Part shown: positions 5,735 to 39,500 of the stretch, piece after piece
Position numbering within the stretch: position 1 is the stretch's first letter
Layout: each line of letters starts with the position of its first letter
Assembly: GCA_008632985.1 (NCBI GenBank)
Contig: QPGO01000020.1
Location: 310,001 to 374,000, forward strand
Length of the DNA stretch: 64,000 nucleotides
DNA from: Psammoneis japonica
Lineage: Eukaryota
Direction of reading: 5' to 3'
Position numbers and translations under genes: made by a program
Notes under the pieces: generated by a model
What the model saw: the letters and a program-made list of their open reading frames with translations, nothing else
What the model was told of the DNA's origin: nothing
Database searches by the model: none

Positions 5735-8700
5735 GGGCATTTAAGATCAAAAGGGAGGCCAGGGAACACTTTGAGAGCAGTGGTTGAGAGTTGCAATGCT
5801 TGTCTGCTGGTGCAGCTGCACCAAAGAGCTTCCAGAGTGAAAGGACACCCTGGTGCAACCAACCAACCCAAGAGCTGCAGGCTGAGGGCATTGAAGATCT
5901 CTGGAGGAACCCAGGGAACTCATTGAGAACAGTGGTGGAGCATTGCAAGGCTCATCTGGTGCAGTCGTAGCCACCAGTCACTTGATCCATTTTCCAGAGT
6001 GAGACCTGAAGCTTCTGCTGAATCCAAAGTGAAAGAGGACCCTGATGCAACCAGCCAAACAACTGCAGGTTGAGGGCATTGAAGGTCTCCCTTGGAGCCA
6101 AAAGAACACTTTGAGAATGGTGGTGGAGCATTGCAAGGCTCACCTGGCACAGTTGCAGAAACCAGTGACTTGATCCATTTGCCAGAGTGAAAGCTGAAAC
6201 TCCTGCCTCTGGTGTGAAAGGACACACTGATGCAGCCAAACAACCCAACAACTGCAGACTGAGTTCATTGAAAGTTTCCTGTGGAACCACAGGAACACTG
6301 CAAAGAGAACAGTGGTGGAGCATTTCAAGGCTCATCTGGTGCAATTGCAGCAGCCAGTGACTTGGTCCACATGCTGGAGCGAAAGTTGAAACTCCTGCCT
6401 CCAGAGTGAAAGGACACACTGACGCAGCCAAACAACACAACAGCTGCAGACTGAGTTCATTGAAAGTTTCCTGTGGAGCAAAAGGAACACTTTGAGAACA
6501 GCAGTGGAGCATTGCACAAGACTCATCTGGTGGGTTGCAGCAAGAACCAATCACTTGATCCACGCCAAAGCTGAAACTGCTGACTCCAGAGTGAAAGGAC
6601 ACACACTGATGCACCCAAACAACCCAACAACTCTGCAGGCTGCGGGCATTGAAAATCTCCAGGGGACCCCAGGGAAAACTTTAGAATTGTGGTGGAGCAT
6701 TGCAAGGCTTGTCCAGTGCAGTTGCAGCCACCAGTCACTTGGTCCATTCCGGAGGCCCAGTGAGACCTGAAATTGCCGAGTCCAAGCTGAAAGAGGACCC
6801 TGATGCAACCAACCAACCAAACAGCCAAACAACTGCAGGCTGAGGGCATTGAAGGTCTCCCTTGGAGCCGAACAAACACTTTGAGAACAGTGGTGGAGCA
6901 TCGCAAGGCTCATCTGATGCAGTTGCAGCCACCAATCCTTGATCCATGCCAGAGTCAGAGCTGAAGCTCCTGAATCCAGAAAGAAAGGACACACTGATGC
7001 AACCAAACAACCCAACAACTGGAGACTGAAGGCATTGAAAGTCTCTGATGGACCCAAGAGAAAACTTTGAGAATGGCCATGGAGCATTGCAAGCCTTTTC
7101 TGGGGCATTTGCAGCCACCAGTCACTCAATGCACTCCAGAGTGAGACCTGAAGCTCCTGACTCCAGAGTGAAAGGACACACTGATGCAACCAACCAGCTG
7201 AACAACTGCAGACTGAGGACTTTGACATCTCTCTTGGAACCAAAAAAACACTTTGAGAAAAGCGGTGGAGCATTGCAAGGCTCATCTGGTGCAGTTGCAG
7301 CCACCTTCCACTTGATCAATGCCAGAGTGAGAGCTGAAACTCCTGACTCCAGAGTGAAAGGACACACTGGTGCAACCAACCAACTGAACAACTGCAGATG
7401 GAGGGCATTGACATCTCCCTTGGAACCAAAAGAACACTTTGAGAAAGGTGGTGGAGCATGGCAAGGCTTGCATGGTGCAGTTGAAGCAAAAAATCACTTG
7501 ACCCATGCAAGAGTGAGGAGAGCTGAAACTCCTGACTCAAGAGTGAAATGACGCACTGATGCAGCAAACCAGCCAACCCAACAACTGAAAATTGGGGACA
7601 TTGAAGGTCTCTGATGGAATCCAGGAAACACTTTGAGAATGTTGCTGGATTGCTGAAGAGTTCATCTGGTGCAGTTGCAGCCACCAGTCACTCACTTCAT
7701 TCCAAAGTGAGAGCTGAAAACTGCTGAATCCAAAGTGAAAGAGGACCCTGGTGCAACAAACCAAACCAGCAATTGCAGGCTGAGGGCATTGAAGGTCTCC
7801 ACCGATGAAAACGACAACATGGATTCTGTTGATGATGGTCGGTTGCACCTGTTGAAATGCAAGAAATGCCGACACGACAGCAGGCAAGACAAGACGTGAA
7901 AAAAAAACGCCAACGCAGCAACAAACCAAACCAGGCTGTCATGACACACCTTGCCATGTTGATGATCACCCCGCATGACATGGAGGTGCCATGTGTTGCA
8001 ATGACTCAGAACGGCAATGTTCCATTTGTTGTGTTGTTGATGGTGGCCACGTTTCACCACACTCGAAAAAAAAATGCGCTCGTGTCGCTGTGGTGAACAA
8101 AGAGTTGAGAAATGTGGTGGATTGTTGCAAGGCTCATCTTGTTCAGAAACCTCCATGAGTCACTCCATCCCAGCAGGGTTGAGAGCTGAAACTCCTGACT
8201 CCAGAGTGAAAGGACACACTGATGCAGCAAACCAACAACCAGCCCAACAACTGCAGGCTGAGGGCATTGAAGGTCTTTGAAGGAACCCAGGGAACATTTT
8301 TAGAATGGCGGTGGATTGTTGCAAGGCCCATCTGGTGCAATTGCAGCCACCAGTCACTCAATGCATGCAAGAGTGCTCAGAGCAGAAACTCCAAACTCCA
8401 CAGAGAAAGAACACCCTGGTGCAACCAACCAACACAAGAGCTGCAGGCTGAGAGCATTGCAGGTCTTCAGAGGAACCTGCAAAACACTGTGAGAATGATG
8501 GCGGAGTGTTGCAAGGCCCATCTGGTGCACATGCAGCCACCAGTGGCTAAAATGCATGCCAAAGTGAGAGCAGAAAAACACCTGACTCCACAGAGAAACC
8601 AACAACTGCATGCTGAGGGCATTGAAGGTTTTCAGAGGGACCCAAGGATCACTTTTAGAATGGTGGTGGAGTGTTGGGAGGCCCGTCTGGTGCAATTGCA

Positions 8701-11700
8701 ACCACCAGTCACTGAATGCATGCCAGAGTGAGAGCTGAAATTCCCAACTCCACAGTGAAAGAACACACTCATGTGACCAACCAACCCAACAACTTCAAGC
8801 TGAGGGCATTGAAGGTCTTCAAAAGCACCCACAAAACACTGTCAGAATGGTGGTGGAGTGTTGCAAGGCCCATCTGGTGCATTTGTAGCCACCAGTCACT
8901 AAATGCATGCCTGAGTGAGAGCAGAAAAACTTTTAACTCCTCAGGGAAAGAACATCCTGATGCATCCATCCAACCCAACAACTGCAAGCTGAGGGCATTG
9001 GAGGTCTTCAGGGGATGTCAGGGAACACTTTTGGAATGATGGTGGCAGAGTGTTGCAAGGCCCATCTGGCGCAGTTGCAGCCACCAGTCAATCAATGTGC
9101 GCAAGATTGCTCAGAGCAGAGAAACTCCAAACTTCTTAGAGAATGAACTTCTCAGAGAATGAACACCCTGATGCACCCAACCAACCCTAGAGCTGCATGT
9201 TGAGGGCATTGAAGCTCTCTGGTGAAACCCAGAGAACACTTTGAGAACAGCGGCAGAGTGTTGCAAGGCTCATCTGGTGCAGTTGAAGCCCCAAGTCACT
9301 TCAGCCATGCCAAAGCAACAGCTGATGAAAGTCCTAACTCCAGAGTGAAAGGACACCCTGATGCAGCCAACCAACCCCACAACTGCAGACTGAGGGCATT
9401 GAAGGTCTCCAGTGAAACCCAGGGAACCCTTTGACATTGGTGGGGGGGGGGGGGGGGGTGTTGCAAGGAACTTCTGGGTGCAGTTCCAGCCCCCAGTCAC
9501 TTTCCCTCCGTGCAAAAGGAAGACCTGATGAAAGCTTTAAGTCCAGAGTGAAAGGGTGCCCTGAAATGCAACAAACACCAACAAACACAACAACTGCAGG
9601 CTGAGGGCATTGAAGGACACTAAAAAACAGCCAGGGAACACATTGAGAATGGTGATGGAGCATTGCAAGGCTCATCTGGTGCACTTGCTGCCAAGAGTCA
9701 TTTAATCCATTCCAGAGTGAGACCTGGCTGAAACTTCCAAAGTGAGTGAGGCCCCTGATGCGGCCAACCGGCCAAACAGCTGCAGGCTGAGGTCATTGAA
9801 TGTCTCCATTCTTGGAAACAAAAGAACACTTTGAGAATGATGGTGGAGCATTGCAGGGTTCATCTGGTGCAGTTGCAGCAACCAGGCACTTGATCCATGC
9901 CAGAGTGAAAGCTGAAACACCTGTGTCAAGAGTGAAAGGACACACTGATGCAACCAAACAACCAAACAACTGCAGACTGAGTTCATTGAAGGTTTCTCAC
10001 ATGAGCAAAGGAACACTTTCAGATTGGTGGTGGAGCATTGCAAGGCTCATCTGGTGCAGTTGCAGCCACCATCCACTTGATCAATGCCAGAGTGGTGAAA
10101 GCTGAAACTTCTGACTCCAGAACAAAATGACACACTGATGCAACCAACCAACAGAGCAACTGCAGGGTGAGGGCATTGACAATCTCCCATGGAACACAAG
10201 GAACAACATGAAAAAAGTGACAGAGCATTGTCAGACTCATCCAATGCAATTGCAGCCAACAATCACTTGATCCATGCCAGAGTGAGAGTCTGAAACCTCC
10301 AACTCCAGAGTGAAAGGACACAGTGATGCAGCAAACCAACCAATCCAACACCGGAAAGCCAAAGACATTGAAGGCCTCTGGTGAAACCCAGAAAACAATG
10401 TGAGAATGGTGGTTGAGTGTTGAAGATTTCATCTGGTGCATTTGCAGACACCAGTCACACAATCCATTCCAGAGTGAGACCTGAAACTGTTGAATCCAAA
10501 GTGAACAAGGACCCTGGTGCAACCAACCAACCCAACAACTGCAGGCTGAGGGCATTGAAGGTCTCCAGTCTCCAGCAGAACCCAGGGAACAGTTTAAGAA
10601 ATGTGGTGGATTGTTGCAAGGCTCATCTTGTGCAGTTGCCTCCATGAGTCACTCCATCCTGGCCAGATTGAGAGCTGAAACTCCTGACTCTGGAGTGAAA
10701 GGACACACTGATGCAGCAAACCAACCAACCCAACACCTGCACACTGAGGGCATTGAAGGTCTTTAGAGGAACCCAGGGAACATTTTTAGATTGGTGGTGG
10801 CTTGTTGCAAGTGAGGCCCATCTGGTGCAATTGCAGCCACCAGCCAGCACTCAATGCATGCAAGAGTGCCCAGAGCAGAAAAATCCAAACTCTCAGAGAA
10901 AGAACACCCTGATGCAACCAACCAACCCAAGAGCTGCATGCTGAGGGCATTGGACATCTCCAGTCAAACTCAGGGATCACTTTGAAAATGGCAGTGGAGT
11001 GTTGAAGGGTTCATCTGGTGCAGCTGCAGCCCCCAGTTACTTGATCCATCACACTCATGGCAAGAGCTGAAAGTCTTGAACCCACAATAAAAGAACACTC
11101 TCACGCAACCAACCAACACAACAACTGTGGGCTGAGGGCATTGAAGGTCTTCAGAGGAACCCACAAAACACTGTGAGAATGGTGGTGGAGTGTTGCAAGG
11201 CCCATCTGATGAATTTGCAGCCACCAGTCGCCAAATGCATGCCAAAGTGAAAGCAGAAAATGACCTGACTCCTCAGAGAAAGAACACCCAGATGCAACCA
11301 ACCAACCCAACAACTGCACACTGAGGGCATTCAAGGTCTTTAGAGGGACCCCAAGGAACACTTTTAGAATGGTCGTGGAGTGTTGCAAGGCCCATCTGGT
11401 GCAATTGCAACCACCAGTCACCAAATGCATGCCAGACTTAGAGCGGGAAAACTCCCAACTCTTCAGAGAAAGAGCACCCTGATGCAACCATCCAACCAAC
11501 ACGACAACTGCATGCTGAGGGCATTGAAGGTCTTTTGAGGAACCCAGCAAACACTTTTAGATTGGTGGTGGAGCGTTGCAAGGCTTGTTTGGTGCAGTTG
11601 CAGCCACCAGTCACTTGGTCCATTCCAGAGTGAGACCTGAAATTGCTGAATCCAAGCTGAAAGAAGACCCTGATGCAACCAACCAACCAACCAACCAAAT

Positions 11701-14700
11701 GACTGCAGGTTGAGGGCATTGAAGGTCTTCTATGGAGCTGAGCAAACATTTTGAGAATGGTGGCCGACCATTGTGAGAGTCATCTGGTGCAGTTGCAGCC
11801 ACCAACAACTTGATCCATGCCAGAGTGAGAGCTGAAACTCTTGGATCCAGAAAAAAGGACACACTGATGCAACCAAACAACTCAACAGCTAGAGAATGAA
11901 GGCATCAAAGGTCTCTGGGCATCCCAGAGAACACTTTGAGAATGTCTGTGGAGTGTTGCAAGGCTTTTGCATTTGCAGCCACCAGTTGCTTGATGCACTC
12001 CAGAGTGAGACCTGAAACTGCCACATCCAAAGTGAAAGAGGACCCTGGCGCAATTGTCCAACCCAACAACTGCAGGCTGAGGGCATTGCAGGTTGTTCTT
12101 GGAGCCAAAGGAACACTTTGAGATCAGTGGTGGAGCATTGCAAGGCTCATCTGGTGCAGTTGCAGCCACCATCCACTTGATCAATGCCAGAGTGAGAGCT
12201 GAGACTCCTGACTCCAGAGTGAAAGGACACACTGATGCAATCCACCAACTGAACAACTGCAGACTGAGGGCATTGACGTCTCCCTTGGAGCCAAAAGAAC
12301 AATTTGAGAAGGCTCATCTGGTGCAGTTGCAGCAACCAATCACTTGATCCATGCCAGAGTGAGAGCTGAAACTCCCAGCTCAAGAGCAAAATGACACACT
12401 GATGCAGCAAACCAACCATCCCAACAGATGAAAATTGGGGACATTGAAGGTCTCTGATGGAATCCAGGAAACACTTTGAGAATGTTGCTGGATTGTTGAA
12501 AAGTTCATCTGGTGCAGTTGCAGCCACCAGTCACTCACTCCATTCCAGAGTGAGAGCTGAAACTGTTGAATCCAAAGTGAAAGAGGACCCTGGTGCAACC
12601 AACAAACCAACCCAACAACTGCTTGCTGATTTCATTGAATGTCTCCAAGAAAACCAAGGAAACAGTTTAAGAAATGTGGTGGATTGTTGCAAGGCTCATC
12701 TTCTTCAGTTGCCTCCATGAGTCACTCCATCCTGGCCAGATTGAGAGCTGAAACTTCTGACTCCAGAGTAAAAGGACACACTGATGCAGCAAACCAACCA
12801 ACCCAACACCTGCACACTGAGGGCATTGAAGGTCTTTAGAGGAACCCAGGTGACATTTTAAGATTGGTGGTGGCTTGTTGCAAGGCCCATCTGGTGCAGC
12901 TGCAGCCACCACCAGTCACTCAATGCATGCAAGAGTGCTCAGAGCAGAAAAACGACCAAACTTCTGAGAGAAAGAACACCCTCCTGATGCAACCAACCAA
13001 CACAAAAGATGCAGGCTGTGGGCATTGAAGGTCTTTAGAGGAACTTGCAAAACACTGTGAGAATGGTGGCAAAGTGTTGCAAAGCCCATCTGGTGCATTT
13101 GCAGCCACCAGTCAACAAAAAATGCATGCCAGGGTGAGAGCAGAAAAACACCTAACTCCATGGAGAAAACAACATCCTGATCCAACCAACCAACCCAACA
13201 ACTGCATGATGAGGGCATTGAAAGTCTTCAGAGGGACCCAAGGAACACATTTAGAAATGTGGTGGAGTGTTGTGAGGCCCATCTGGTGCAAGTGCAACCA
13301 CCAGTCACTCAATGCATGCCAGAGTGAGAGCTGAAATTCCCAACTCCACAGTGAAAGAACACACTCATGTGGCCAGCCAACCCAGCAACTGCAGGCTGAG
13401 GGCATTGAAGGTCTTCAGAGGCACCCATGAAACACTGCTGGAATGGTTTTGGAGTGTTGCAAGGCCCATCTGGTGCATTTGCAGCCACCAGTCACTGAAT
13501 GCATGCCGGAGTGAGAGCAGAAAATCTCCTGACTCCGCAGGGAAAGAACATCCTGATGCATCCATCCAACCCAACAACTGCAAGCCAAGGGCATTCAAGG
13601 TCTTCAGAGGAGCCCAAGAAATGCTTTGAGAATGGTGGTGGAGTGTTGCAAGGCCCATCTGGTGCAGTTGCAGCCTCCAGTCACTGAATGCATGCCTGAG
13701 TGAGAGCAGAAAAATGCCTTGTTCTTAGAGAAAGAACATCCTGATGCAACCAACCAACCCAACAACTGCATGCTGAGGGCATTGAAGGTCTTCAGGGGAT
13801 GTCACGCAACACTTTTAGAATGGTGGGGGAGTGTTGCAAAGCCCATCTGGAGCAGTTGCAGCCACCAGTCAATCAATGCATGCAAGAGTGCTCAGAGTGG
13901 AGAAACTCCAAACTTCTCAGAGAATGAACACCCTGATGCACCCAACCAACCAAGCCAACAACTCCATGCCAAGGGCCTCAAAGGTCTTCAGAGGAACCCA
14001 GGGAACACTTTGACAATGGTGGTGGAGTGTTGAGGGGCTCATCTGGTGCAGGTGCTGCCCCCAGCCACTCAATCCATGACAAGGTGAGAGCTGAAATTCC
14101 TGACGACTCCTCAGTGAAAGAACACACATGCAACCAACCTGAAGCCAACCCATCAACTGCAGGCTGAGGGCATTGAAGGTCTTCAGCTGCACTCATGAAA
14201 CACCACAAGAATGGCAGGGGAGTGTTGCAAGGAACATCTGATGCAACTCCAGCCCCCAGTCACTTGCTCCATGCAAGAGGAAGACCTGATGAAAGCCTTA
14301 AGTCCAGAGTGAAAGACACCCTGATGCAACCAACCAACACAACAACTGCAGGCTGAGGTCATTGAAGATCTCTCTAGAAGTGCCCAAGGAACTCTGTGAG
14401 AATGTTGGCTGAGCATTGCAAGGCACATCTGGTGAAGTTGCAGCCCCCAGTCCAGTCACTCAACCCATGCCAAAATGGGACAAGGAAAATTCCCAACTGC
14501 TCCAGAATTAAAGGACACCCTGACACAACCAACCAATTCAACAACTGCAAGCCAAAGGCACCAAAGATCTCCAGGGAAAACAAGGGGAAACTTTGATGAT
14601 GGTGGCAGAGTTTTGTGAGACTCATCTGGTGCAGTGGTGGCCCCCCCCAGTCACTTCATCCACACCAACAAAATGTGAGCTGAAATTCACAACTCCAGAG

Positions 14701-15860
14701 TGCAAGGACACCCTGATGCAACCAACCAACCCAACAACTGCAGGCTGAGACATTGAAGGTCTCCAGGGGGATCCAGGCAATGCTTTGAGAATGGTGGTGG
14801 AGTTGTTGAAGAAGGCTCATCTGGTGCAGTTAAAGCCACCAGTCACTTCATCCATGCCAGATTCAGAGCTGAAACTCCTGACTGCAGAGTGAAAAGACAC
14901 ACCCTCATGCAACAATCAACCCAACAGCTGCAAACCCAGGGCACCAAAGATCTCAAATGAAGCCCAGGGAACACATTGAGGTTGGTGGCAGAGTGTTTCA
15001 ACAACACACATCTGGTCCAGATGCAGCCCCCACTCACAAAGTCCATGCCAGAGTTAGACCTGAAATTCCAATTGCTCCAGAGTAAAAGCGCACACAAGGG
15101 TGCAACCAACCAGCCCAACAAATGCAGTTTTAGGGCATGGAAGGTCTCCCCAGGGTTGCCTGGGAGCAACATGAGAAACAGTGGTTGAGAGTTGCAAGGC
15201 TTGTTGGGTGCAGTTGCACCCCCAAGCCACTTCATCCATGCAAGAGTGAGCTGAAATTCCTGGCTCCAGAGTGATGGGATGGGGCACCCTGATGCAACCA
15301 AACAACCCAACAACTGCAGGATGAGAGACTTTGAAAGGTCTCCTCCAGGGGAGGAAACACTTTGAGAAAAGTGGCTGAGTGTTGCACTTGTCTTGTGCAG
15401 CCGCAACTGGCAGCTGTGTCATTCTTGCCAGAGCCAGAACTGCAATTCCCACCTTTCAGTGTGAAAAGACACCCTGATGTGCAATCAACCAGCACAACAA
15501 CTGCAGGATGAGGGCAATGACAATGGTCTCTGGTGGAGCCCAGGGAACACTTTGACAAATGTGGTTGAGTGCTGCAATGCCCATCACTTTGCCCAATGCA
15601 GAGCTGGGGCTCACAACTCAAGAGAGTGAAAGCAAACAATGGCACAACTGACAAAGACATCATCTGAACACTGTGAGAGCTGTGGTTGAGCACTGCAAGG
15701 CCCACATTTCTTTGTTTCACCCAACCAGAAAAGAGAGTGAGATTTCAAGCTCTCCCACTTCCTGAGTGAAAGGACACCCTGGCACATGGCCTGCCAACAC
15801 ACCAGCTGCAGACTGATGGTGTTGGCGGTCCAGGGAACATTGGGAGAACTGTGGTGCAAC
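5735..15860. repeat. Diverged tandem array (satellite), ~186-bp monomer, roughly 50 copies, with higher-order blocks
   Basis: The unit GAACACTTTGAGAATGGTGGTGGAGCATTGCAAGGCTCATCTGGTGCAGTTGCAGCCACCAGTCAC...CAACAACTGCAGGCTGAGGGCATTGAAGGTCTC recurs about every 185-195 bp (e.g. 6104, 6292, 6485, 6874, 7245, 7432). ORF 7048-7551 shows a 62-aa period. Confidence 0.95.
7800..8095. mobile_element. ~290-bp non-array insertion interrupting a satellite monomer
   Basis: Absent from the homologous higher-order copies (~10560-10590 and ~12640-12665). It has CACC/GGTG ends and no recognisable family. Confidence 0.55.
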
Positions 15861-18460
15861 AAAAAAAGATTCATGCATGCACAGTGCAGACTTTCTCCTC
15901 CTTTTTCATGCAGCACAAACACCTCAAAATCATCCATTGCACAGCAGCACAAAAACCTGCATGGATTCTGTGTGTGTCATTCTTTGTGGGTTGTTGTGAT
16001 CCCCCACTTCCACTTGGAAGCTTGAGTCAGAATGAGTTGTCACATTGCCAGCAACTTGCACAAAAGTCAGCGACCACATGCAATGACCCATGCTTGTGAC
16101 AGCAAGGAAGGAAAAGCACAATGCACCTGTCCTTCATGCTGGCTGGTTCTACAATGTGAATTGGCGCACATGGCCACAACAGATTTTCTTGCACCAGGAG
16201 CAGTGAATTTGTGTGCTTTCCCTCTTCCGCACCACTGACAGACTTCCCGCCATTCTCCACGGCATGGGCTGTTTCTCAAAACAATGTCTCCTAAAGTCAA
16301 AATGCCATTTCATTTTGCTGCTTGATGTTGTTTTTGGTGATCAGACATTTTGGGAACAGTCGTGTGGCATGATGTTCTCATGTGTTTCTGTGATGTGGAC
16401 CTGATGTCACAAAAAATTCAAACCTGCTCATGTTTCAAACAAGATCTCACCTTGCACAAAAACCACACAATCTCACAATGCTTTTCAATCACATCTAAAG
16501 TGTCCAAACAAACAATGAGATGCAACCTTTCTTCCCGTGCAACTCCAATGGAGAGCATGGGATGGGCTCACACGAGTGTTGGCAACAAACGCAGCAGGCT
16601 GTTGAATGAATGCAAGGTCTCTCATGACATGAAGTCAATGAAAAGAGGATGTCCTTCAAAACAACTCCAATGGCAGCCATCAGCTCAGTTGAGCATCATT
16701 CCAAGCAAACACGATGCCTCCGACATGTGCTTGTTGCAGACAAACTGACACAAGAGCATCACTGCATCCTCAGCAACATCCAAGCATGAGTCACCGCAAG
16801 GCATTTATGAACCATCTCACCTGGAAGTGCAGCCAGAGCTTTCACATTGGCCACAGACATGCTTGGGTTCAGATGAGTTGCAACCACACTCCGATGTCAG
16901 CTGTGGCTTGGCCGATCATCAAATCTTCAGCAGATTTGACAGCTGACATGTTGAAAACGGGGGTCAGTTTGAAAACAGGAAATGAAAAGCAACCACTTGT
17001 TTGGAGGGTTTTTTTTGTGTCAAAACATTTGCAAATGAATGAAGACATTGTTCTCCAGTTGTCAAAGTGATTGCAAGCCAGCAATCAACAAGTCATCAGT
17101 TGCAACAGCTCATCAACAAAAACAGCAAAGGTCTTTTCATTGCAAAAATCAAAATGCTCAACCCTGCTTTCAAACCACACTGGTTGTGATGCAGTGTCTC
17201 TGGCAGCCAAACAAGCCAGTCACTTGTGTCAACATTGTGTGCCAGCCAATGTCCCAATGGCAAGACAAATTGCACAGCAAGCAAAGATGGGGGAGCACAT
17301 GAACACGCTTCATTGCAGAAAAAATGCCTGGGTGCTGCTTCAGCCAGCAACCTGAGTGCAGTTGCTTGCAATTGTCAGAGATGAGAGCAGCCTTGTCTGC
17401 ACTTCATTTTGCGACTTTCCTGAAAGCAGAAATTTGCAGAGTGCTGCAAGCAACATTTCACTCCCCCCCCAAAAATCTGCTTCTGCTTTGAGTCGCTCCA
17501 AGTGATGTTGCATCCCCTCAAGTTGCGCTGTGGCCCTGGGAACACCCTGGCTCTCTCAAAAAGCATTCTTTGTTTCCTGCACACAATGGACAAAGAGATC
17601 AAAGCAAAACAAGAGGGTGAGAAGACAACAGAGTTCATCAAATGCCATGGAACAATGCACTTGCTGTGAGAACACAAGAGCAAAGAAGCACAGTGCAAGC
17701 TCAGAGAATGTTTTCATTTGTTTTCATTGTCAATCAGTTTTTGGGTTGAAAGCTGCAGGTCCAATGGTGTCAGCATAAAATTGACAATGCTTGTTTTTGG
17801 TGGTGATGGCCGCTGTTGCAGAGATGCTCCATCCATGTCGATGTTTTGGCAATTCTGGAAACAGCCATTTCACCTGGGTTTTGGCCACGCAGCAGAAAAC
17901 ACATGATGTGAGTGAATTAAAACTTGTGGCATTCTAAAAGCAAGACAGCAGATTTCTGACTGATCCACCAAATGACTTTTCCTCACAGCCTTTGTTCCTC
18001 ATTGTTCGCTTCTCTCTGCGTCAGGTGCACTTGTGCTCACAATCGTGCGCGTGCCTCGTGCGCTGTTTGAGAGGTGCTGATGATCCAGGTTTGACAACCC
18101 TCCTGTGACAGAGCAAGCAGTCATGGTGCTTTTTGGGCAAGATGCCAACTCAGCAACTTGTGGCCACCAAGCCAGCAAACGAAAGCAATGACTTCGACTT
18201 TTGCCAAGATGTGCAGCTGCAGGCGGGCGGGGGCTGCCAAGAGATTTGTTGTTTTTTGCATTGCAACAACTTTCAGAACCTGACATTTGGCACAATCAGT
18301 GACAGCAACCAGTGGCAGCATGCATTAGATCTAAAGGGAGTGAGGGAAGCAAGTGCGTGGCCACGCACTTGTGTTCACAGGCTCAAAGCCTGTGAGTCGT
18401 CGTCGATTGATTTGACTCGTCAGCAAGATGCTCTGACCTGCGACCGATCGACCGATCAGC
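15860..18460. other. CpG/TpA-depleted degenerate sequence (probable TE or gene relic) adjoining the array
   Basis: TG/CA-rich with only YTAR-type and rare other TAs. Its ORFs are rich in Cys/His/Gln, essentially lack Tyr and have no recognisable domain. Confidence 0.7.
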
Positions 18461-24234: not shown

Positions 24235-24374
24235 GTTCACTGTTACTTCGTTCGAACAGCACTCGCGGGAATTGAAAACAGTTCTCATGAGTGGTCTTCC
24301 GCTTATAACGTCAGGATATCTGCCAGCATCAATACAAGGAGTATTCCTCTCTTTTTAGACAAAAACCGAGATAT

Positions 24375-24755
24375 TTATAAGAGTCCATTCGAAAGTAGGA
24401 AAGCAATAAGAAATGCAACAATCACGATGCTTGCTCCTCCCACAAGCTTGAACGTCGGATTCAATATTGCATCGCCAGATACCCGATCCGAGTCCTCGGC
24501 TGTTGTGATATCTCTTGATATAAAACCCTTGTAGTATTCCTTACTTCCAAGCTCAATTTGATCACTGTCACCCTCTGGATCTTTGTCTTTGTTTTTGGTG
24601 AAGCTCTTGGACATGCTGCGCCCTCGTACCGGCATGGGCGGTTTCCTGCCTGACAGCAGCGCGGCATTCTTGCCAATAGAGAAAGCGCAAGAATGATCCT
24701 GGATCATGATCAAAATGCAAACAAGAGAAATACATAAGAAGTCACGGTCTCTCAT
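24375..24755 (-). CDS. Small, probably plastid-targeted membrane protein
   Basis: Signal peptide ending SCA-F (resembles the diatom bipartite ASAF motif), a basic transit-like stretch and a C-terminal TM helix. Confidence 0.65.
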   Translation of the reverse strand: MRDRDFLCISLVCILIMIQDHSCAFSIGKNAALLSGRKPPMPVRGRSMSKSFTKNKDKDPEGDSDQIELGSKEYYKGFISRDITTAEDSDRVSGDAILNPTFKLVGGASIVIVAFLIAFLLSNGLL

Positions 24756-24859
24756 TGCGCTTTTCTTTAGCCTTTGTCGACACTGCATCAACCCTTTATA
24801 TGATGTGAACGCTCCGCAACTTGCAGGGCCCTACCTATTGCCAATGTCGTGATTTCGTG

Positions 24860-27290
24860 AAATGTGCGGCGCGCGGCGCCTCTCTGGCGCGCTGTGCGCT
24901 GCGCAACAAGCGTGCATGATGCAGATCACGGGGCGCCTGCTTTTCCCCTTCTTGTTTTGAAGGTGCTTCAAGCTTGTCACTGTTTGGGTCACTTGTTGAG
25001 CTTCTCACATCTGCAGGCTCATCCGATTTTTAAAATGCATCTCTGGGATTGCTGTTTCTTTTGAATCAGCCACATTCTCTGCACCCCACGGCATTTGAGA
25101 GATCTGTGTTTGTGTTGCTCAATTTTGTCTTCTTGCTGAGCTGTGCTGGTGTGTGGTGCTCTTCTTTGTGCCTGACGATCATTTTCAGACATTGCACTCT
25201 GTTTTTGAGCAGGTTCTGAATGAAAAAAAAGAAAGCAAGCATGACAATGCAATGATGAGCCACAATGTTGACTGCAGTGACATGAGTTGTTTTGTTGAAA
25301 ATTCAAAACTTGAGAATGGCTCAAACTCATTTTTTCAAGAGCCTCCCTCTTTCCACCAAGAAGCAGCTCACAATGGCCAACCATGCAAGAGCTCTCAAAA
25401 AATTTGAGCATGTCATCCCAGGCATCTGATCAGAGAATCATGAGTTTTGTCAGAGAGACAAAAATGCCATCATGTGAGGAGAGCCCGCTCTCTCAGCCGC
25501 CTTTTTGGCTGAACCCGTCAATCTCCTTTGATGACCATCAAGCCATTGCCAATGTTGTTGCAGCTGTTGTCCTGCACAAAAGTGCTGGTGGAGTTTTCAA
25601 CCTCTCAAGCAAATGCATGCAAAGCTCACAAGCTCAGATTGCCAGGTGTTCTTGACTCATGAATGGCGCAGGGAATGAGCCCACTTTTGAGCAACAAGCT
25701 GCGGCTCTCTGACTTTTTGAGTGTGCTCAGCAGCCTTGCATTCTTCTCTGAATGGTCAACCAACTCATCAGTGATGTTGTTGTGCTCAATGCATGCAGGA
25801 GCAGCTGTTGCATTTCCATTGCTGAAAACACACCAACCCACAGTGCTGCCTGTGGTGCATGGCTTGTTGTCATGCCACACCACACCACCACCAGACACAA
25901 CCACCAAGAATCAAACTCAGGTCATGATCCAGCAATGTGGCTCATTTTGCATGTGACAGCTGGGCAACTGTCTCTTCCAAAGAAAGTGTCATCCAGGTCA
26001 GCAGCTGGCAACAGCTCTTCAACAGCCCTGCTTGTTTGGCGCCAATGACTCACTGTGTTGTTGGAGCAGCACAGCTCAGACAAGTGCCCTTCTTTCATTG
26101 CAACAGCAACGGCCATTGAGTTTAAAGGGTTGGGGACACCTTTGTGCCCTGGTGAAAGATGTTGTCAATGAACCATGTTTCCTGCAGCACTCAAATGTGC
26201 AGCAGCAGCAAAGGCCCCAAAAAGGCTGGACACAACACAGCACTGTTCACAAACAAGTGCCCTTCATCACAAATTGGCAGCATCTCTTTGAGGCCCCCCA
26301 AAAAGGCCAGGCATGACACAGCACTGTTCACAAACAAGTGCTCTCCACATCACAACAGGAACAGCTCTTTGATCTTGAGAAGTTGGGGCTGTCTTGCTGC
26401 AAAGAGATGTTGTTGGCATGTGCTGCACCGAGATGCTGCAAAATCCAACAGTCAAGTGTGCAGCAGCAGCAGCAGAAGCACCCAACAAGGTCAAACACAG
26501 CACAGCACTGCATGCTCACAAACAAGCACCCGTTGTCACAGCAGCAGCAGCAGCAGCAGCCCTGCCTTGCTGCCAAGAGACATTTGTTGGTGCACCACTG
26601 AAGATTGGACACAAGAACGCAGCCATTTGCAAACAAGTGCCATTCCCATTGTCACAGTGACAGCAACAGCTCATTGAACAGGGGGTGGGGGAGGGGTGTC
26701 TCACTGTGAGAGACATTGTTTGGCCAATTTTTGCCCTTTGAGACATTGCAAAATCCCACAGTCCTCAAATGAGCCAGGCAGAGCAGCAGAAGAAGCTCCC
26801 CAAAAGGCTGCTGGGTGCAGTGCAGCACAGCTGTTCATGTGCACAACCCAAAAAGCAAATTGCCCAAACAAAGCAGACACTGGTCTTGAGATTCCTGTTA
26901 GCACATTGCAGCACATGAGCTGCTCTGCCCACTGCCTGGCCAAAAAACAGCAGCTGCGCTCTTTTTCCAGCGGGTGACTTCTTGAAAACAGGCTGGTGTG
27001 GAGGGCACTTCTTTGTTTTTTTTTAAGCTTCAACATTCTTGTGGCTCACATTGAGACCAGCACCACACTGTCAATTCTCTCGCTGATCACACCCAGCTGT
27101 TCAGATGATCTTGAGTTGAAGATTGATGCCAGCGCCTGCCCCACAGCTTCTTTTGTTCTCAAAGTCCTCCAGCATGTGATGAACAAGCAACAAGAGAGGA
27201 ACAAGAAGAATCAGCATCCTCAAGTGGGCTCCAACACCATGCGCTCTGCTGCCAAGGATGTGCGGTGCCACCGGGCTTTTCGAACTAAAA
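24860..27290. other. CpG/TpA-depleted domain (relic repeat or TE)
   Basis: Only about 5 TpA in 2.4 kb by eye, all TTAA/TTAG/CTAA. Its ORFs are Tyr-free. Confidence 0.85.
26195..26820 (+). repeat. Degenerate minisatellite with CAG runs
   Basis: ACAGCACTGTTCACAAACAAGTGC at ~26237 and ~26318, with variants at ~26505 and ~26630. CAGCAGCA...CCCCAAAAAGGC recurs at ~26200, 26292, 26461 and 26783. Confidence 0.7.
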
Positions 27291-27556
27291 TGTAGTTCTC
27301 CCGGTGTGCCCCGCAAGTGCTGCGGTGCACCTCCGCAAACACGCACGGCACAGCACGAGCTTTTTACCCTTCTTGCGAGCTGTCTCAGGGCTGAAGAACC
27401 CGGAACGAGAGAAGCCAAGTGTACTACCGGTACGCGCTTGACAATGCGCATGTCAGCAAAGTACAGTAAAGGCACTGGCGGCGGCTGGCGGCACGCTCAT
27501 CGCTCGCTCATCGCACTCATCAGCAGGCAACACACTGAAGGAGGCAGATATCGACG

Positions 27557-33299: not shown

Positions 33300-33719
33300 G
33301 CTGATTTGTCACTGTATTGCTACTGTTGTCTTTTGCAAATTGTGAGGGAAATGGCGAGTTGACAAAACCACACACAACGATTAGCGATTGGCGATAGGGC
33401 TACTTAGCAACGTCCAACGACCAACGACCACCTACCTGGCTGTCTACTACTGCCAGCCTGCTGACTGTACAGCACAGTTAGTACCGTATCGCATCATGGC
33501 ATGCATCCGATGGAGCTGGCATATGTTTCTTCACTCTTGCCGGCGCTTCATTGTACCGCACAGTGTCGGCATGGCACGTGCACCGGAATGACAAATGCTT
33601 CAGCAAGACACAAAACATCATGATGATGTTGTGATGACGAGGAGCGACCTGGGCCATCTTCTTGCTTGCCCTCGCCTTTGAGGTTTTCAGCTTTGGATCA
33701 TCTCCGTAGAGCTACACTG

Positions 33720-36700
33720 GAAGTGCTCTTGCACAAAGAGTGCCCGAAACGCCGGGTTCTCGGCACAGGGCCCCAACTCTTTCTCCTCAATGTGAGCAGT
33801 GCCTGGATGACCTCGCTTCAACTGAGCGCGGGGGGTCATTGCACACTCCTGTGTGCGCTGCTGCTCTGCATTTGCATGAGCTTTGCACCTGTGCAAGCTG
33901 TGCCTCTTTGCAGTGCCACCATCTGATGATCCTCTTTGTGCCAAGGATTGTTTGGGCTCTTGTTGCTGGGCGCAACAATGGCCTTGCAAGTGCTGCAACC
34001 TTTGACAAGCACAAGCATGGTGGAAAGCAGCTGCTGGCAAGTTTGCAAGAAAAACAAGATCAAAGTTGTTGGGGCTGGAAAAATGAAGTGCAAAAGAGAA
34101 AGAGGAGCTGCGACAAAAACTGGCCTCCACACATCTGACATCTGAGTCAAGCTTGTCTGTGTTGGGGAGCTGCTGCACTTTGCAATGAGTGGCAGTGGCA
34201 CGGTGGGGGTGACACGTTGACTTCCAGTTGGTGCTGCTGCTGCACACTGCCATCAACCACATGACAACATGCAGCCAGTGCCAGGCACTCAAATGAGTGC
34301 CCCCCCCGTTGTCATTGCACTTTGTGATGTCAGCGCACCAAAGGCAATGTGGGTGCATTTTAATTTTCTGAAAGCCAAGCAGTGTGCAAAAGAGGCAAGA
34401 GACCATGGTGCACCATGAAGAGTCATGAAGCAAACAGCAAACCGGTGGTGCAAAAATGCACCCGCTGTTTGCTGTGGCAGCAAGTTCGCTCAAAATGGGT
34501 GCAAACACAGCTGACAACCTGGACCCAGCTGTGGAGAGTCAATTGACTGTCCTGTGTCACAAAATTTTCTTTGATTTGCTGGCATGATGCACACATGATG
34601 TGGCAATTGTGAGAACAGTGGGTGCACACAGCACAAAATCTGTCACTCCAGCTTGGGACAAAAACCACAGTGACAACAACACTGGCCCTGGTTGTGGGTT
34701 GGCAAATCCATGTCATGACATGTCACAATTGCAGCCTGACCACCAATTGCATGTTGTGATGCACAAAAAATGCACAGAACAATGATTTGAAGTGAGCACT
34801 GACAAGGCTTGAAAATTTGACCAGCTCTCTAGAATCTCTGGCTCAGCCTCCAATGTGAGGCACAAACCACCAGTGCATTGCCACCATCTTCATCCAATTC
34901 AACCCTTGCAAAAGACACCAGCTTCTGAGGCTGGGGAGCTTTCTTGGTGTGTGATGCTTCCCAAAGCTCCATCAAGTGGTGACAAGATAAAAGACTTGCA
35001 CCCCACATTGTCAAACTTGAGAACTTGATGCTGCACAGGCAAATGCTGTGTGGCAATCAGCAAGGAGCCACAGTTTGCAAATGTCTGAACTGGGACTGCA
35101 GCAGCTTACAGGAGAGATGTGTTGCAGCTGTTTGAGCACCAAAAAAATGAGCCAAACTTGCCAGCCCCAGCAAGAACTGTGCATGATGTGCTGCTGGTGG
35201 TTGGCCAGCAACTGGCAGACAACAAAGTTTGTTGTGGAAAGGCACGAGTGGAATCCACAGTGTTGACCAGCTCAGTGTAACATCAAAACTTGGCATCTTC
35301 AGTGGAGAGGCTGGGCCTCTGCTCCTGCTCCACAGACTCTGGAGATCATGCCAACAAGCTGCCAATGAGCTTGTTTTGCAAAGCACCCTCTCCAGATGCA
35401 AGTGCACAAACTTGCTCACATTTGGCAACCAGGCATTTTGCAATGAAGATCTTCTTTGTTGGGGATGTTGCTGCAGGTTCTGCCACAAACAAGTCTAAAA
35501 TCACAAAAAGCAAGCTTCTCTTCAGCTTCAAACAAAATCTCAGTGCTGGTCACTTCATGACAAAAGACTGCACAAATCACAGTGCCTCCCCACCACAATC
35601 AAGAAGAGCTGACAAAGTCCAAACAAGTGCAGCTGGAAGGTGCACTCTTTCTAATCTCACAGGCTCCATGGCAAGTGCAGAGCATGCTTGCACCACAGCT
35701 GGCAACAAACAATGCAGCAGGCTGCTGCAACTCAAGGCTGGGTTTTGCATGACATTGGGCTTTCTGCAAGCAAACATCCTTTAAAGCATCTCCATTGAAA
35801 TCCATTGGCTCAGCTTGACCTTGCTCTAACCAAAGGCAATGTGGTGCTTCCAACATGTGCTTCTTGCCAGACAAGTCAGCAAGTGCTGTGCACTTTCCTT
35901 GTGGATGTCAAGACCTCCAACAGAACACTGTCCTTGCCCCAAGAAAAAACTGCAGATGCTCAACCAAACTCCAAGAGTGTTTTTCAACAAAGAACAATGT
36001 CAGAAAAGCAGACAAATGAAGAATGAGAAAAACAACAAACTCTGCTGGCATTGCCTCCAGCAGAGCTTGGATCTGTGTGTGCCTCGGGCCAACCTTGGCC
36101 AACCTTGTCAGGAGGGAAAATGCAGCAATGTGCTGCACTTGCAACTGTGCTGTTGTTGAAACCAACAGCTCTGCTTTGGATGAATGCATGGGGGGGGGAA
36201 TGGCCCTCATTGATTCCTGCACTCCTGCCAAATTGTGGCACACTCCAACAAACAATTGGGGCAATTTTGCACCCATGAGATGTCCACATCATCAAGAGTG
36301 CAGCAAGGTGGAACTGTGCACATGTTGACCAGTTGGTGACTCCTTGAGGATCCTCAGCAAGCAAGACACTTTCTTCAGCAGCCATTGTGCCAAGGATGTG
36401 GGTCTTCAAGTTGAGGTGCTGTGCTTTTTGGGAGCTTGCAATTTTTGGAAAAAAAAAAGAATGAGTGCTTTGCATTGGATGTGTGTGCTTTTGCCAAATG
36501 AAATTTTGGCAACGAGCTGTGACTTTGTCCACTCATGAGACATGATTGTGGAATGCACAGATGCATGATGGTTGTGGCGATGTGCAATGTTCAGCTTGGC
36601 TGCAGCCTGCGGAGAAAGTGCCAGCTGTCAGATTTTGGCAGAACTCTCAGGCAACTTCAACCCAACAACAGGGCACAGGCTGACCAGCAGCAGCATTTGA

Positions 36701-39500
36701 AGCTTCAAATGTGCAGCTCTTGTGTTTGTGCAATGGCCCTGACAAGGGTTTGGCCTGATGAACACACAAGTGTTTGAGAAGGGTGTTCTGAGACAGATCA
36801 AAACAAAGTGGTGTGAGGTGCAGCAGAAAAGAGCACAAGCTGCTTTAAACTGGACCTCATCTGGAAGATCTGGCCCATCCTCAAGTCTGCAACCTGCAAC
36901 TGGGAAATTGGGGAGAAAACAGGGGCAGTTGGCAGCAGAGCAATGGAGCACCACTGATGGAAGGTGAAGGTGCCATGTTTCAAGACAATTGGACAAGGCA
37001 GAAATCATTCTCTTTCTGTTGTCTCAAGGTTTGATGCTGACTTTGTTCTTCAAAATTGCTGCTGCAGGCACAATTGCTCAGTGTTGGACACAGAAGATGT
37101 GTTGTGAGCTCTTGTTGTCACAGCTTGTGACTTGACAGATGTTCCTGAAATCTTGTTGTTTGATCCTGCAATTGTTCCGCAGGAAGCTTGTGTGTGAGGG
37201 TTCCTGCAGCACAATGTGCAGTGCCAGCACTCCAAGAAATTGTCATCCCCATCCTCTTGGCTGCTGGCATTGCAACAGGTGCCAAGTGGTGATGAGTGAC
37301 ATCATGATGTGGCTTGGAAGCAAAGCAATGCTGGTGGCTGGGTGTGTGCAATTTTTCTTTCCCCCTCTGTTCTCCAAAGAAAAGGAGAAAGTTTGCTTTG
37401 GCACACATGTGTGCAATCATGGGGTTGCCAAGACATTGTTTGTTTTGGCATTTCTGTCAATTTGGTGAGCAGCTTTGTTGGCTCCATTCATCCAGGTGTT
37501 CATCATTGTGCTTGTTTCTGGAGTTAAAAGCAGTCCAGTGAACTTGCTCCATCTCTCAAAGCACTTTTGGCTTTTGGGCAGCACAGGAAGTCAAATTTGT
37601 TGGCATGGTTTTTGTGAAGGGCTTGCTGCTTGACAGCAAAATAGAGATGGTTGGCACCATCCTTGTGAGAGCATTGTTGTGCACACTTTTGTCTGTGGCA
37701 CCCACACTCAAGATGCTGTGGATGTGCTCTTGAACCATGCAAGCAAAGAAGATGAGTTGCTCACAGGTGGCAGTGCTTGCCGCAGCATTGTCATGACCTG
37801 GGGCTGTGCTGCGCAATCTTTTCAAGGATCACTTTTGCATTTTTTTAAGAGCTCAGTCACAAGCAAGAACAAAAGTTGCAGGTCAGGGATTTCTTTGCTC
37901 TGTGCAGACAGATCTCCACTGAGCTGCCAAGATGCTTGCATTGCTCTTCTTCTTGGCACAACTCTCTGGAACTTGTTTGGTGCTCTGGCACACATTGGGG
38001 CTTGGCATCTGCATGTCAAGCACTCCAATGTTGAAGCAACAAGAAGCTTGTTTCCCCAGAATCATTGAGTGGTGTGATCTCTCCATCTTTTTTGACTCCA
38101 CAGATTGTGACTTGATTTGTCTGTCTTGCTGGGCTCACGTCATAACTTGAATCTCCTGGCTCATTCTGGCAACTTTTGTGTGCACAAATTTCTGTTTTGC
38201 ACACATGAGAAAGGTCAAGTGCTTGTCTTCAGCAAGGCTGGCAAGTCTGCTGTGTGGTCAAGCTCACCTGACTTTTAGTCAGTCCTGAGCTCAGCAGAAA
38301 ACTTCCAACCACAGGCATGCCCACATGCTGTTGCTGGAAAATGACATGGCTTTCTTGCTTGACAATGGTGCCATGCATCTCTGAACTCTTGGACACTTGG
38401 CAAGAGAGTTCAACAACTGTCATTTTGACCTTAGAGATCAGAGTGGTTGAAAATGGTGCATGCTTTGCAGCTGGTCTCTTTTAGAGAGTGTGCTTCAATC
38501 ACACAGGAGATTTTCAACATGGCTCAGATGTCTGGCTCATTTCCTGCACCCTTGAATTCTCCACTTCAGCCATGCTGGAGATTTTCAACATGTTTTCTAG
38601 CTTTGGCTCATTTTCCATGCCCTTGTGCTCTTCTGGGCTCTCTGCTCTGAGCATTTTTGTTGCATTTCAAAATTGCTCACCAGGGCAGCAAAACATGTTT
38701 TTTCCCACTGCCGCTGGGCAGGCATTCATGAGAAAGAACACCAGCTTCGGCTGGCTTTTCAGCACTTTGGTGCCATGTTGGCACAGGCTTTGGTGCCATG
38801 TTGGCACAGGCTTTGTTGTGCTGACAAACAGGTGCAATGCAGTGGAAGAGCTGCCACAAGGCAAGTTGTGTGGGTTGTTGTCAAAAATCTTGTTTTCATT
38901 GAGAAAAGAGCTTGTTGGGTGAAGTCTTTGTCTGTCAACAGCAGCTTTTCAACCATCTCAGTTTTTTGTTTTTTCTTTTTTGGCAAGTTTGCTGAGAGTT
39001 GAAAGAAGAAGATGTGGCTGAGTCATGAGCCTTGCCGCAAACGAAGCCAGCTGCCATGCGTTGCTGTGCTCTGCAAAATGCAGAGCAGCGCACCATGTCA
39101 CCATGTGCTGCTCTGCTGCTGGAAAAAGAAAAAATGATCACACCAACAACCAAAAGCTCTTCTCTGTTTGCTGATGCAACAACTGCTCAAGTGCCTGATG
39201 CTGCCCACTGAATCAAGAAGAAGGGAAAAGAGCTTTTTGTGCTGCCCTCCCCTGCTTTCTTGCGGTGCGGTGCTTCGAGCTGCTGTGCTGCTCAGCACCA
39301 CTCTCCTCCCTTTCTCTGTTCTGTTCCCACCCAAATCAGACAACTTGGGACTGGGAGATTTTTCCTTGTCATTTGACAGTTTTCTCTCTGACTGGTCATC
39401 ACACAATTGAAACAACGACATGCAGAGGGAGCGGAGGGCATGCAGGAGCGGCAGGGGGGCAGTGGGTGGTGTTTGGCACGATTGATGACTGCATCAAATA
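33720..39500. other. CpG/TpA-depleted domain of ~5.8 kb, probable decayed transposon
   Basis: Abrupt compositional switch between ordinary genes, TG/CA-rich, residual TA mainly YTAR. The size is TE-like but no family was recognised. Confidence 0.8.
38766..38814 (+). repeat. 23-bp direct tandem duplication containing an internal inverted repeat
   Basis: TTTGGTGCCATGTTGGCACAGGC x2, with GTGCCA-TGT-TGGCAC inside. Confidence 0.85.

Follow-up and report, generated by a model that had tools for sequence, protein, structure and literature searches.

Context-dependent TpA depletion beside CpG depletion in four domains of a Psammoneis japonica contig points to a probable TpA mutational process

Composition of the locus

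The window analyzed here is the whole stretch of 64,000 nucleotides at positions 310,001 to 374,000 (forward strand) of contig QPGO01000020.1 of Psammoneis japonica (GenBank assembly GCA_008632985.1), and all positions below are counted from its first letter. Scanning of the window in 500-bp steps for CpG, TpA, TpG/CpA and G+C detected four stretches jointly poor in CpG and TpA, with G+C of 0.44-0.53, the same range as outside. These stretches, the bounds of which were set by TpA positions, are referred to as domains D1 (5743..18325), D2 (24837..27292, intergenic), D3 (33714..39498) and D4 (54697..56403). The domains (22,531 bp) contained 74 TpA (3.3/kb) and 191 CpG (8.5/kb), when compared with 39.1/kb and 57.1/kb, respectively, in the remaining 41,469 bp; the densities of TA and CpG inside were 0.08 and 0.15 of those outside. 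TG/CA was increased approximately 1.5-fold per kb in the domains, with observed/expected ratios of 1.4-2.4 (TG and CA in D2 were at approximately 1.7-2.1 times expectation). The domain edges were sharp to within tens of bases. D2 retained 23 CpG in 24912-27286, mostly near the edges.

The sequences of the four domains were mutually unrelated. D1 contained a tandem satellite on the plus strand (5753..15856), composed of 54 units of approximately 187-191 bp that were about 70% alike. The TG/CA columns of the satellite were mostly fixed across the units, indicating that the conversion had largely occurred before amplification or that the units were homogenised later. D2, D3 and D4 had no copy in the window, and blastn found only 60-95-bp repeats internal to D2. 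The search for coding remnants in D2-D4 (26 six-frame pieces) yielded no Pfam match with E lower than 0.016, all being below the curated cut-offs, and none of the 12 pieces from D3 had a Pfam match. Neither the Rfam scan nor the tRNA scan matched any RNA gene in the window. Relatives of the D1 satellite were sought in metagenome contigs with a degenerate 20-letter motif, which matched at least 118 loci with one match per locus, and with a satellite profile in nhmmer, in which no related sequence and none jointly poor in CG and TA was found among the matches listed; the motif matches were attributed to chance.

The open reading frames (ORFs) flanking the domains corresponded to ordinary eukaryotic genes, encoding FG-GAP, Na/H exchanger and PLOD-type glycosyltransferase proteins and a protein of 1,799 aa with a PqiA domain. 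The last was encoded by an uninterrupted ORF at 40632-46031 (+), in which residues 1465-1542 form the PqiA (paraquat-inducible protein A) domain, and its nearest Atlas clusters were PqiA-bearing hypothetical proteins, part of which were from Bacillariophyta. For two of the flanking genes, the nearest Atlas clusters were in Bacillariophyta (scores 0.87 and 0.94), which are regarded as leads only.

Several further features of the domains were observed. The satellite region was A-rich on the plus strand (A 3127, T 1956). D2 carried an 81-bp tandem duplication (two copies, 81% alike) along with a third diverged copy at 26185-26372 and 26446-26560, as well as a stretch of (CAG)n around 26466-26560; contigs assembled from public reads broke at these repeats. 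The strand bias of D3 switched near 36.8 kb, A exceeding T and RCAR exceeding YTGY on the left (R, purine; Y, pyrimidine), and T exceeding A and YTGY exceeding RCAR on the right, so D3 may be made up of two oppositely oriented pieces. Frames of 90-275 codons free of stops were common in the domains on both strands and had no family match (e.g. 275 codons at 33714-34538, minus strand), as TAA and TAG are almost gone and TGA is the sole remaining stop. Gene callers could take such frames for genes.

Surviving TpA dinucleotides

The first-pass annotation of this DNA had reported that the few TpAs remaining in D2 were all of the class YTAR, from which it proposed a mutator with the target TAY>TGY (RTA>RCA on the other strand), and had noted by eye the same bias in the other domains. 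The five TpAs were indeed located at the given places, and 24837-27292 contained no others. They were TTAA with TpA at 25031 (25030..25033; tttTAaaa, of the type TYTARA), 26123 (26122..26125; gttTAaag) and 27024 (27023..27026, ending a T9 run), TTAG at 26899 (26898..26901; tgtTAgca, which is YTAR and not TYTARA), and CTAA at 27286 (27285..27288), the right edge of D2. The bias also held in D1 (YTAR at 38 of 48 TpAs), D3 (13 of 18) and D4 (all three).

The counts of the tetramer classes inside and outside the domains, which the same annotation had suggested as a check, confirmed the bias. The 74 TpAs inside were divided into YTAR 59, RTAR 10, YTAY 5 and RTAY 0, and the 1,626 outside into YTAR 281, RTAR 395, YTAY 453 and RTAY 497 (Fisher p = 9e-30). 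The inside/outside ratio of density was 0.39 for YTAR, 0.05 for RTAR, 0.02 for YTAY and 0.00 for RTAY, the last class being absent where approximately 270 sites were expected at the outside density. Even YTAR was thus depleted 2.6-fold in the domains. When D2, D3 and D4 were pooled, YTAR accounted for 21 of 26 TpAs.

The share of YTAR was then compared with background shares corrected for composition and for repeated array positions. The back-mutation null, in which in-domain NCAN and NTGN sites undergo transitions, gave an expectation of 26.7% YTAR, against 80% observed (binomial p = 3e-21), and a null from any single-base source gave 25.7%. The 40 TpAs in the array fell on 18 distinct array positions, 14 of which were YTAR. 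Counting each array position once still left YTAR at 39 of 51 TpAs (p = 2e-13). In the non-array domain DNA (12,427 bp), YTAR accounted for 25 of 33 TpAs, compared with 22% under the null and 17% outside. The corrected YTAR share thus stayed well above background, whereas equality of the two had been named in the first-pass annotation as the outcome that would refute its inference.

The satellite provided a view of the same bias among its units. At the consensus TG/CA columns, TA variants were found in 15 of 674 cells flanked by Y..R, 5 of 571 by R..R, 1 of 381 by Y..Y and 0 of 395 by R..Y, although these cells were not independent, the TA variants falling on 5, 2, 1 and 0 columns, respectively. 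CG variants at these columns numbered 4, 7, 7 and 8 in the same order, the opposite trend to TA. At satellite column 56, GA was changed to TA in eight units, and column 156 (R..R), with TG in 32 units, CA in two and TA in three, looked like new arrivals by TG>TA. Methylation at CWG (CAG>TAG) was considered as a source of the residual TAGs and rejected, as it fails on the abundance of TTAA (18 of 74) and the scarcity of RTAG (3 of 74).

Sequence context of TpA loss

The depletion of trinucleotides was graded by context. Relative to outside, TAC/GTA was at 0.01, TAT/ATA at 0.02, TAG/CTA at 0.13 and TAA/TTA at 0.22. Only TA was depleted, and not AA, CA or GA; AA and TT were at 1.31 and 0.88 of the outside density, and no trinucleotide without CG or TA was under 0.64. 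GAY was considered as a weaker target (GAC/GTC 0.65, GAT/ATC 0.68) and set aside, since Asp codons in the outside coding DNA explain these values more simply.

The bases beyond the immediate neighbors also mattered. The symmetrised -2 base at YTAR survivors was T in 79 of 118 strand views, and within YTAR sites A occupied the +2 position in 35 of 50. The TpA depletion was fitted by a log-linear model in which each strand context had a single constant, giving per-strand log-depletion of 0 for TAAA and TAGA, 0.2 for TAAG, 0.65 for TAAC, 1.1 for TAGG, 1.6 for TAAT, 1.8-1.9 for TAGC and TAGT, and 1.9-5.8 for TAY. TAAA and TAGA made up 40 of the 66 strand contexts at non-array survivors, against 13% under the null and 12% outside, and the hexamer TYTARA was found at 11 of 33 non-array survivors, against 1.6% and 1.1% expected, respectively. 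The context rule therefore extends to the second base on each side; there is essentially no loss at TAAA and TAGA, and the survivors are of the form TYTARA.

Products of the substitutions

With all changes being transitions, the purine or pyrimidine class of the flanking bases is kept, and bookkeeping at the level of these classes is exact. A context-free loss of TpA then predicts equal gains of YTGY+RCAR and RTGR+YCAY, approximately +11.5/kb each, whereas the rule TAY>TGY/RTA>RCA predicts approximately +16 and +7 per kb, respectively. The observed gains were +13.3/kb for YTGY+RCAR and +3.9/kb for RTGR+YCAY in all domains, and +18.3/kb and +2.8/kb in D2-D4. The ratio of YTGY+RCAR to RTGR+YCAY was 1.89 in D2, 2.02 in D3 and 1.75 in D4, when compared with 1.22 +/- 0.23 (maximum 1.69) in 20 outside 2-kb chunks; it was lower in the satellite chunks (1.22-1.46). 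If CpG decay mildly preferred YCG, this would supply only approximately 2/kb of the excess. The gains per context were +30.8/kb for TGY, +5.4/kb for TGRY and +0.25/kb for TGRA, and they tracked the loss of TA (r = 0.53) and not that of CG (r = -0.22).

The total loss of CG and TA was 84.5/kb, of which TpA accounted for 35.8/kb, and the gain of TG and CA was 77/kb, approximately 91% of the loss. This balance indicates that transversions were minor, an estimate made indirect by the baseline of the product test, which is mostly coding outside DNA and is its main weakness. The counts of YTGY and RCAR were 90 and 107 in D2, 114 and 142 in the first part of D3 (D3a), 115 and 92 in the second (D3b), and 62 and 64 in D4, demonstrating that both strands were hit about equally. 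The excess of products and the classes of the survivors thus agreed with the target proposed in the first-pass annotation, which was nevertheless incomplete, as the +2 base also matters and TAAA and TAGA are resistant.

Relation between CpG loss and TpA loss

The loss of CpG followed other contexts, with CGA/TCG at 0.10, ACG/CGT at 0.11, CCG/CGG at 0.17 and GCG/CGC at 0.24 of the outside density. The context constants for CG and TA were uncorrelated (Spearman 0.04), by which one context rule common to both losses was ruled out. At class level, the loss of CpG was balanced by the gain of TpG/CpA, as required of decay driven by 5-methylcytosine (5mC). Such decay resembles the CpG half of the pattern, with CpG at 0.15 and the matching gain in presumably methylated repeat DNA. 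The difference is that 5mC-driven decay leaves TpA untouched, so that the whole TpA loss stands unexplained by it; the TpA process has its own context rule and its own reach.

The reach was seen at the domain edges. The TpA-free zone overshot the CpG-poor core by 51-326 bp at seven of the eight domain edges, and the reverse was never observed. The overshooting collars totaled 1,335 bp, where CpG was at an observed/expected ratio of 0.63 and only one TpA (CTAA) was present (0.01). The collar on the right of D1 (18000..18325) had 11 CpG (observed/expected 0.50), and those on the left (24837..24940) and right (27235..27285) of D2 had 14 (1.36) and four. D3 had collars at 33714..33975 (left, nine CpG) and 39260..39498 (right, seven CpG), and D4 at 54697..54955 (left, eight CpG and the single CTAA) and 56310..56403 (right, seven CpG); all but the one on the left of D4 contained no TpA. 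Moreover, TAY at 0.01-0.02 of the outside density, when compared to CpG at 0.15, means that each TAY site received more than twice as many hits.

These results bear on a coupling of the two losses through DNA repair, in which T:G mismatches from 5mC deamination would undergo long-patch repair with error-prone filling by a Pol-eta-like polymerase (WA>WG; W, A or T), and TpA would decay alongside methylated CpG. The Pol-eta signature of somatic hypermutation likewise includes A>G at TpA and is tied to the processing of deaminated cytosines; the motif WA comprises TA and AA, and A>T and A>C are further errors of this polymerase. The losses of CpG and TpA did co-occur in all four domains, the overshoot is comparable in scale with excision tracts, and non-canonical mismatch repair at deaminated CpG in human cells is described in PMC13458396. 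In the domains, however, AA and TT were spared where TA was at 0.08, and the balance of TG+CA allows for few A>T or A>C changes, both of which disfavor the Pol-eta route. In addition, the TAY sites had taken more hits than CpG, although under this model each hit would depend on a rarer nearby trigger, and the collars combined partial loss of CpG with complete loss of TpA. We thus consider this explanation very unlikely.

A second alternative needs no dedicated enzyme. Old heterochromatin would decay slowly and passively under a spontaneous or repair bias specific to the lineage, for example by a T:G-directed glycosylase enriched on methylated DNA and fixing replication T:G mispairs towards C:G, a logic that resembles very-short-patch repair in E. 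coli. Such a bias combined with CpG decay would approach low CG/TA and high TG/CA, and the domains do look old, judging from the divergence of the satellite units and the absence of coding remnants in all 26 six-frame pieces. Passive decay requires replication errors at TAY to exceed 5mC deamination per site, and predicts a general drift of A:T>G:C, but TA alone was affected. It is also opposed by the sharp boundaries and by the complete absence of RTAY in 22.5 kb despite approximately 1,150 R..Y TG/CA sites able to back-mutate. Slow decay was judged to be rather unlikely.

Comparison with read contigs

The sequence of the domains was compared with Logan contigs of a public run (X1), possibly of the source sample, and 40 of the 183 differences from the window were examined. 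A k-mer-assembled contig with a depth of 58 matched 24001-26598 with six other letters and two gaps; a fault of a single assembly therefore does not account for the sequence of D2. Of the eight differences listed for D2, three were TG/CA against CG (25553, 27014 and 27062), and paired swaps between TG and CA were found in D3 at 34610/11, 34625/26 and 34950/51. Such differences and swaps would follow from separate decay of CG or TA sites in different alleles or copies. Read contigs of lower identity also matched D3. Another run (X2) had contigs on the genes between D2 and D3 and none on D2 or D3; the kind of this run was guessed, and nothing was concluded from it.

The read contigs bear on the possibility that the pattern is not mutational at all, the domains being foreign or functional DNA that avoids CG and TA by origin or selection, or an artefact of sequencing or assembly caused by modified bases. 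In favor of this possibility, many viruses and RNAs under-represent CpG and UpA (PMC3829696). The absence of RTAY, in contrast, exceeds any compositional bias known to us, and the depletion is shared by four mutually unrelated sequences, one of which is a satellite. The alternative is further opposed by the k-mer-assembled contig reproducing D2, and by the differences of TG and CA from CG and the swaps between TG and CA. A non-mutational origin was accordingly given very little weight, the least among the alternatives.

Discussion

A domain-confined and context-dependent mutational process acting on TpA very probably shaped the domains, judging from the survivors, the products and the collars. 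The best explanation for the whole pattern combines CpG decay with a separate, enzyme-like TpA mutator targeted to chromatin domains, to which we give an even chance. According to this explanation, the domains, a satellite array plus three unique relics, would be silent and non-coding DNA that was rewritten by two separate near-saturating transition processes. Both would turn the self-complementary YpR dinucleotides into TpG/CpA, so that G+C stays at approximately 0.49. The first process would be the ordinary decay of CpG to TpG/CpA with a mild preference of WCG > CCG > GCG, arising from 5mC or from a RID-like activity. The second would convert TpA to TpG, or to CpA via the other strand; a 5'-T is strictly required and the 3' context is graded. 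The depletion was at least 50-100-fold at TAY, 3-7-fold per strand at TAGY, TAAT and TAGG, less than 2-fold at TAAC and TAAG, and approximately none at TAAA and TAGA. As survival needs resistance on both strands, the remaining sites are T-Y-TA-R-A. The loss of TpA is strand-symmetric, exceeds CpG decay in its per-site rate, and is undiminished 50-300 bp past the CpG-poor core.

Several points weigh against this explanation or limit it. The substitutions are unpolarised, and their direction would follow only from mass balance against an imperfect stand-in for the ancestral composition. Some of the residual TpAs, namely those at satellite columns 56 and 156, appear to be newly arrived, so the residual set mixes input with resistance. 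The collar bounds were chosen after viewing the data. As for the chemistry, the sequence would fit an attack on A in TAY and an attack on T in RTA alike. TAC was not preferred over TAT, unlike the natural UACG loop of TadA. No DNA adenine deaminase acting naturally on eukaryotic chromatin is known to us, and the search of the deaminase literature turned up only engineered TadA editors and bacterial cytosine-deaminase toxins.

We favor as the cause of the TpA loss a base-modifying enzyme recruited to chromatin domains in an arrangement that resembles repeat-induced point mutation (RIP). The lesion could then be the hydrolytic deamination of adenine to hypoxanthine within 5'-TA, which is favored because the hypoxanthine/inosine lesion alone gives a clean A>G. 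We hold adenine deamination to be the most likely chemistry, at somewhat less than an even chance.

The target could instead be thymine. A repeat-directed dioxygenase of the TET/JBP type would oxidise T in 5'-RTA to 5-hydroxymethyluracil (5hmU) or 5-formyl-U, and mispairing with G or faulty processing would produce T>C, seen as A>G on the opposite strand. An attack on the T of R-T-A is an equally good reading of the motif, and both 5hmU and base J are reported in older literature to prefer TpA. By itself 5hmU, which pairs with A, is no strong mutagen, and more than 99% conversion by almost pure transitions is harder to achieve by this route than via inosine; we know of no 5hmU in diatoms. Dinoflagellates and diatoms both belong to the SAR group (stramenopiles, alveolates and Rhizaria). 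Two reports describe TET/JBP homologues of dinoflagellates that make repeat-enriched 5hmU tied to transposon silencing (PMC11572971, PMC11071213), which is a likeness in the enzymatic modification of A:T pairs on repeats. The mark there is epigenetic and is not a reported mutator, and base-resolution mapping in Breviolum minutum is described as giving no sequence motif (PMC11071213). Thymine oxidation therefore seems unlikely.

The effector itself is a more tentative matter. A natural, chromatin-targeted DNA adenine deaminase is conceivable, serving in a RIP-like defence or heterochromatin-marking system of the diatom lineage and hitting 5'-TA unless R-A follows, though we would not rate it as probable; such an enzyme may have the cytidine deaminase (CDA) fold and act on both A and C. 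Fungal RIP (RID, DNMT4-type) is similar in its near-saturating transitions within sharply bounded non-coding or repeated DNA, its dinucleotide target and its spill-over at the edges. It differs in acting by C:G>T:A only, while the domains here lose TpA by A:T>G:C with G+C unchanged. RIP in ascomycetes raises TpA and lowers G+C (PMC2621366), and this hallmark is absent from the domains, in which TpA and G+C had the values given above. With respect to duplication, D1 is a 54-unit array, D2-D4 are single in the window, and read contigs of lower identity fall on D3. According to PMC9998398, diatom DNMT4, found in 8 pennate and 23 centric species of 60 diatom species, groups with fungal RID, some of the proteins carry a chromodomain, and their function is described there as not known.

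Known adenine deaminases resemble the presumed effector in part. TadA/ADAT2 and the TadA-derived adenine base editors deaminate an A that follows U or T to I (read as G), and the requirement for this 5' base fits the depletion of TA alone. The natural target of TadA is U33-A34-C35 in a UACG loop. These are RNA enzymes in nature, and their DNA activity arose by laboratory evolution, the evolved TadA acting on DNA with motif preferences (PMC11405849). In the domains, TAT was hit as hard as TAC, any pyrimidine served and the context extended to +2; the UAC(G) preference of TadA is thus not seen. A TadA-like deaminase is possible. Hyper-editing of animal retroelement copies by ADAR also gives clustered A>G in repeats. 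ADAR, known from animals only, favors a 3' G, but TAG was less depleted here (0.13) than TAY (0.01-0.02), and the satellite was affected too, by which editing of the ADAR type is disfavored.

For diatoms and other algae, the literature search, which did not extend to subscription journals or bioRxiv supplements, found no report of joint CpG/TpA loss or of TpA-specific hypermutation. The known repeat-directed or methylation-linked mutation systems, such as RIP, 5mC decay and AID/APOBEC, attack cytosine. The proposed process makes the predictions that TYTARA sites survive, that TGY/RCA pile up and that the process is separable from CpG methylation. Since G+C is unchanged, such domains evade detectors of silenced DNA based on G+C or on CpG only, while their signature (low CG and TA, high TG/CA, unchanged G+C) is usable to scan other algal genomes, and its distribution could be matched with that of candidate deaminase, TET/JBP or DNMT4 genes. 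A domain-confined eraser of TpA acting by A:T>G:C, with a higher per-site rate than CpG decay and a motif so sharp that no RTAY is left in 22.5 kb, would join the list of programmed or chromatin-linked mutators. If the proposal is true, this would be the first natural enzyme known to act on nuclear DNA by adenine deamination, as well as the first mutator directed at repeats that drives A:T>G:C, and a natural DNA adenine deaminase would be of interest for base editing.

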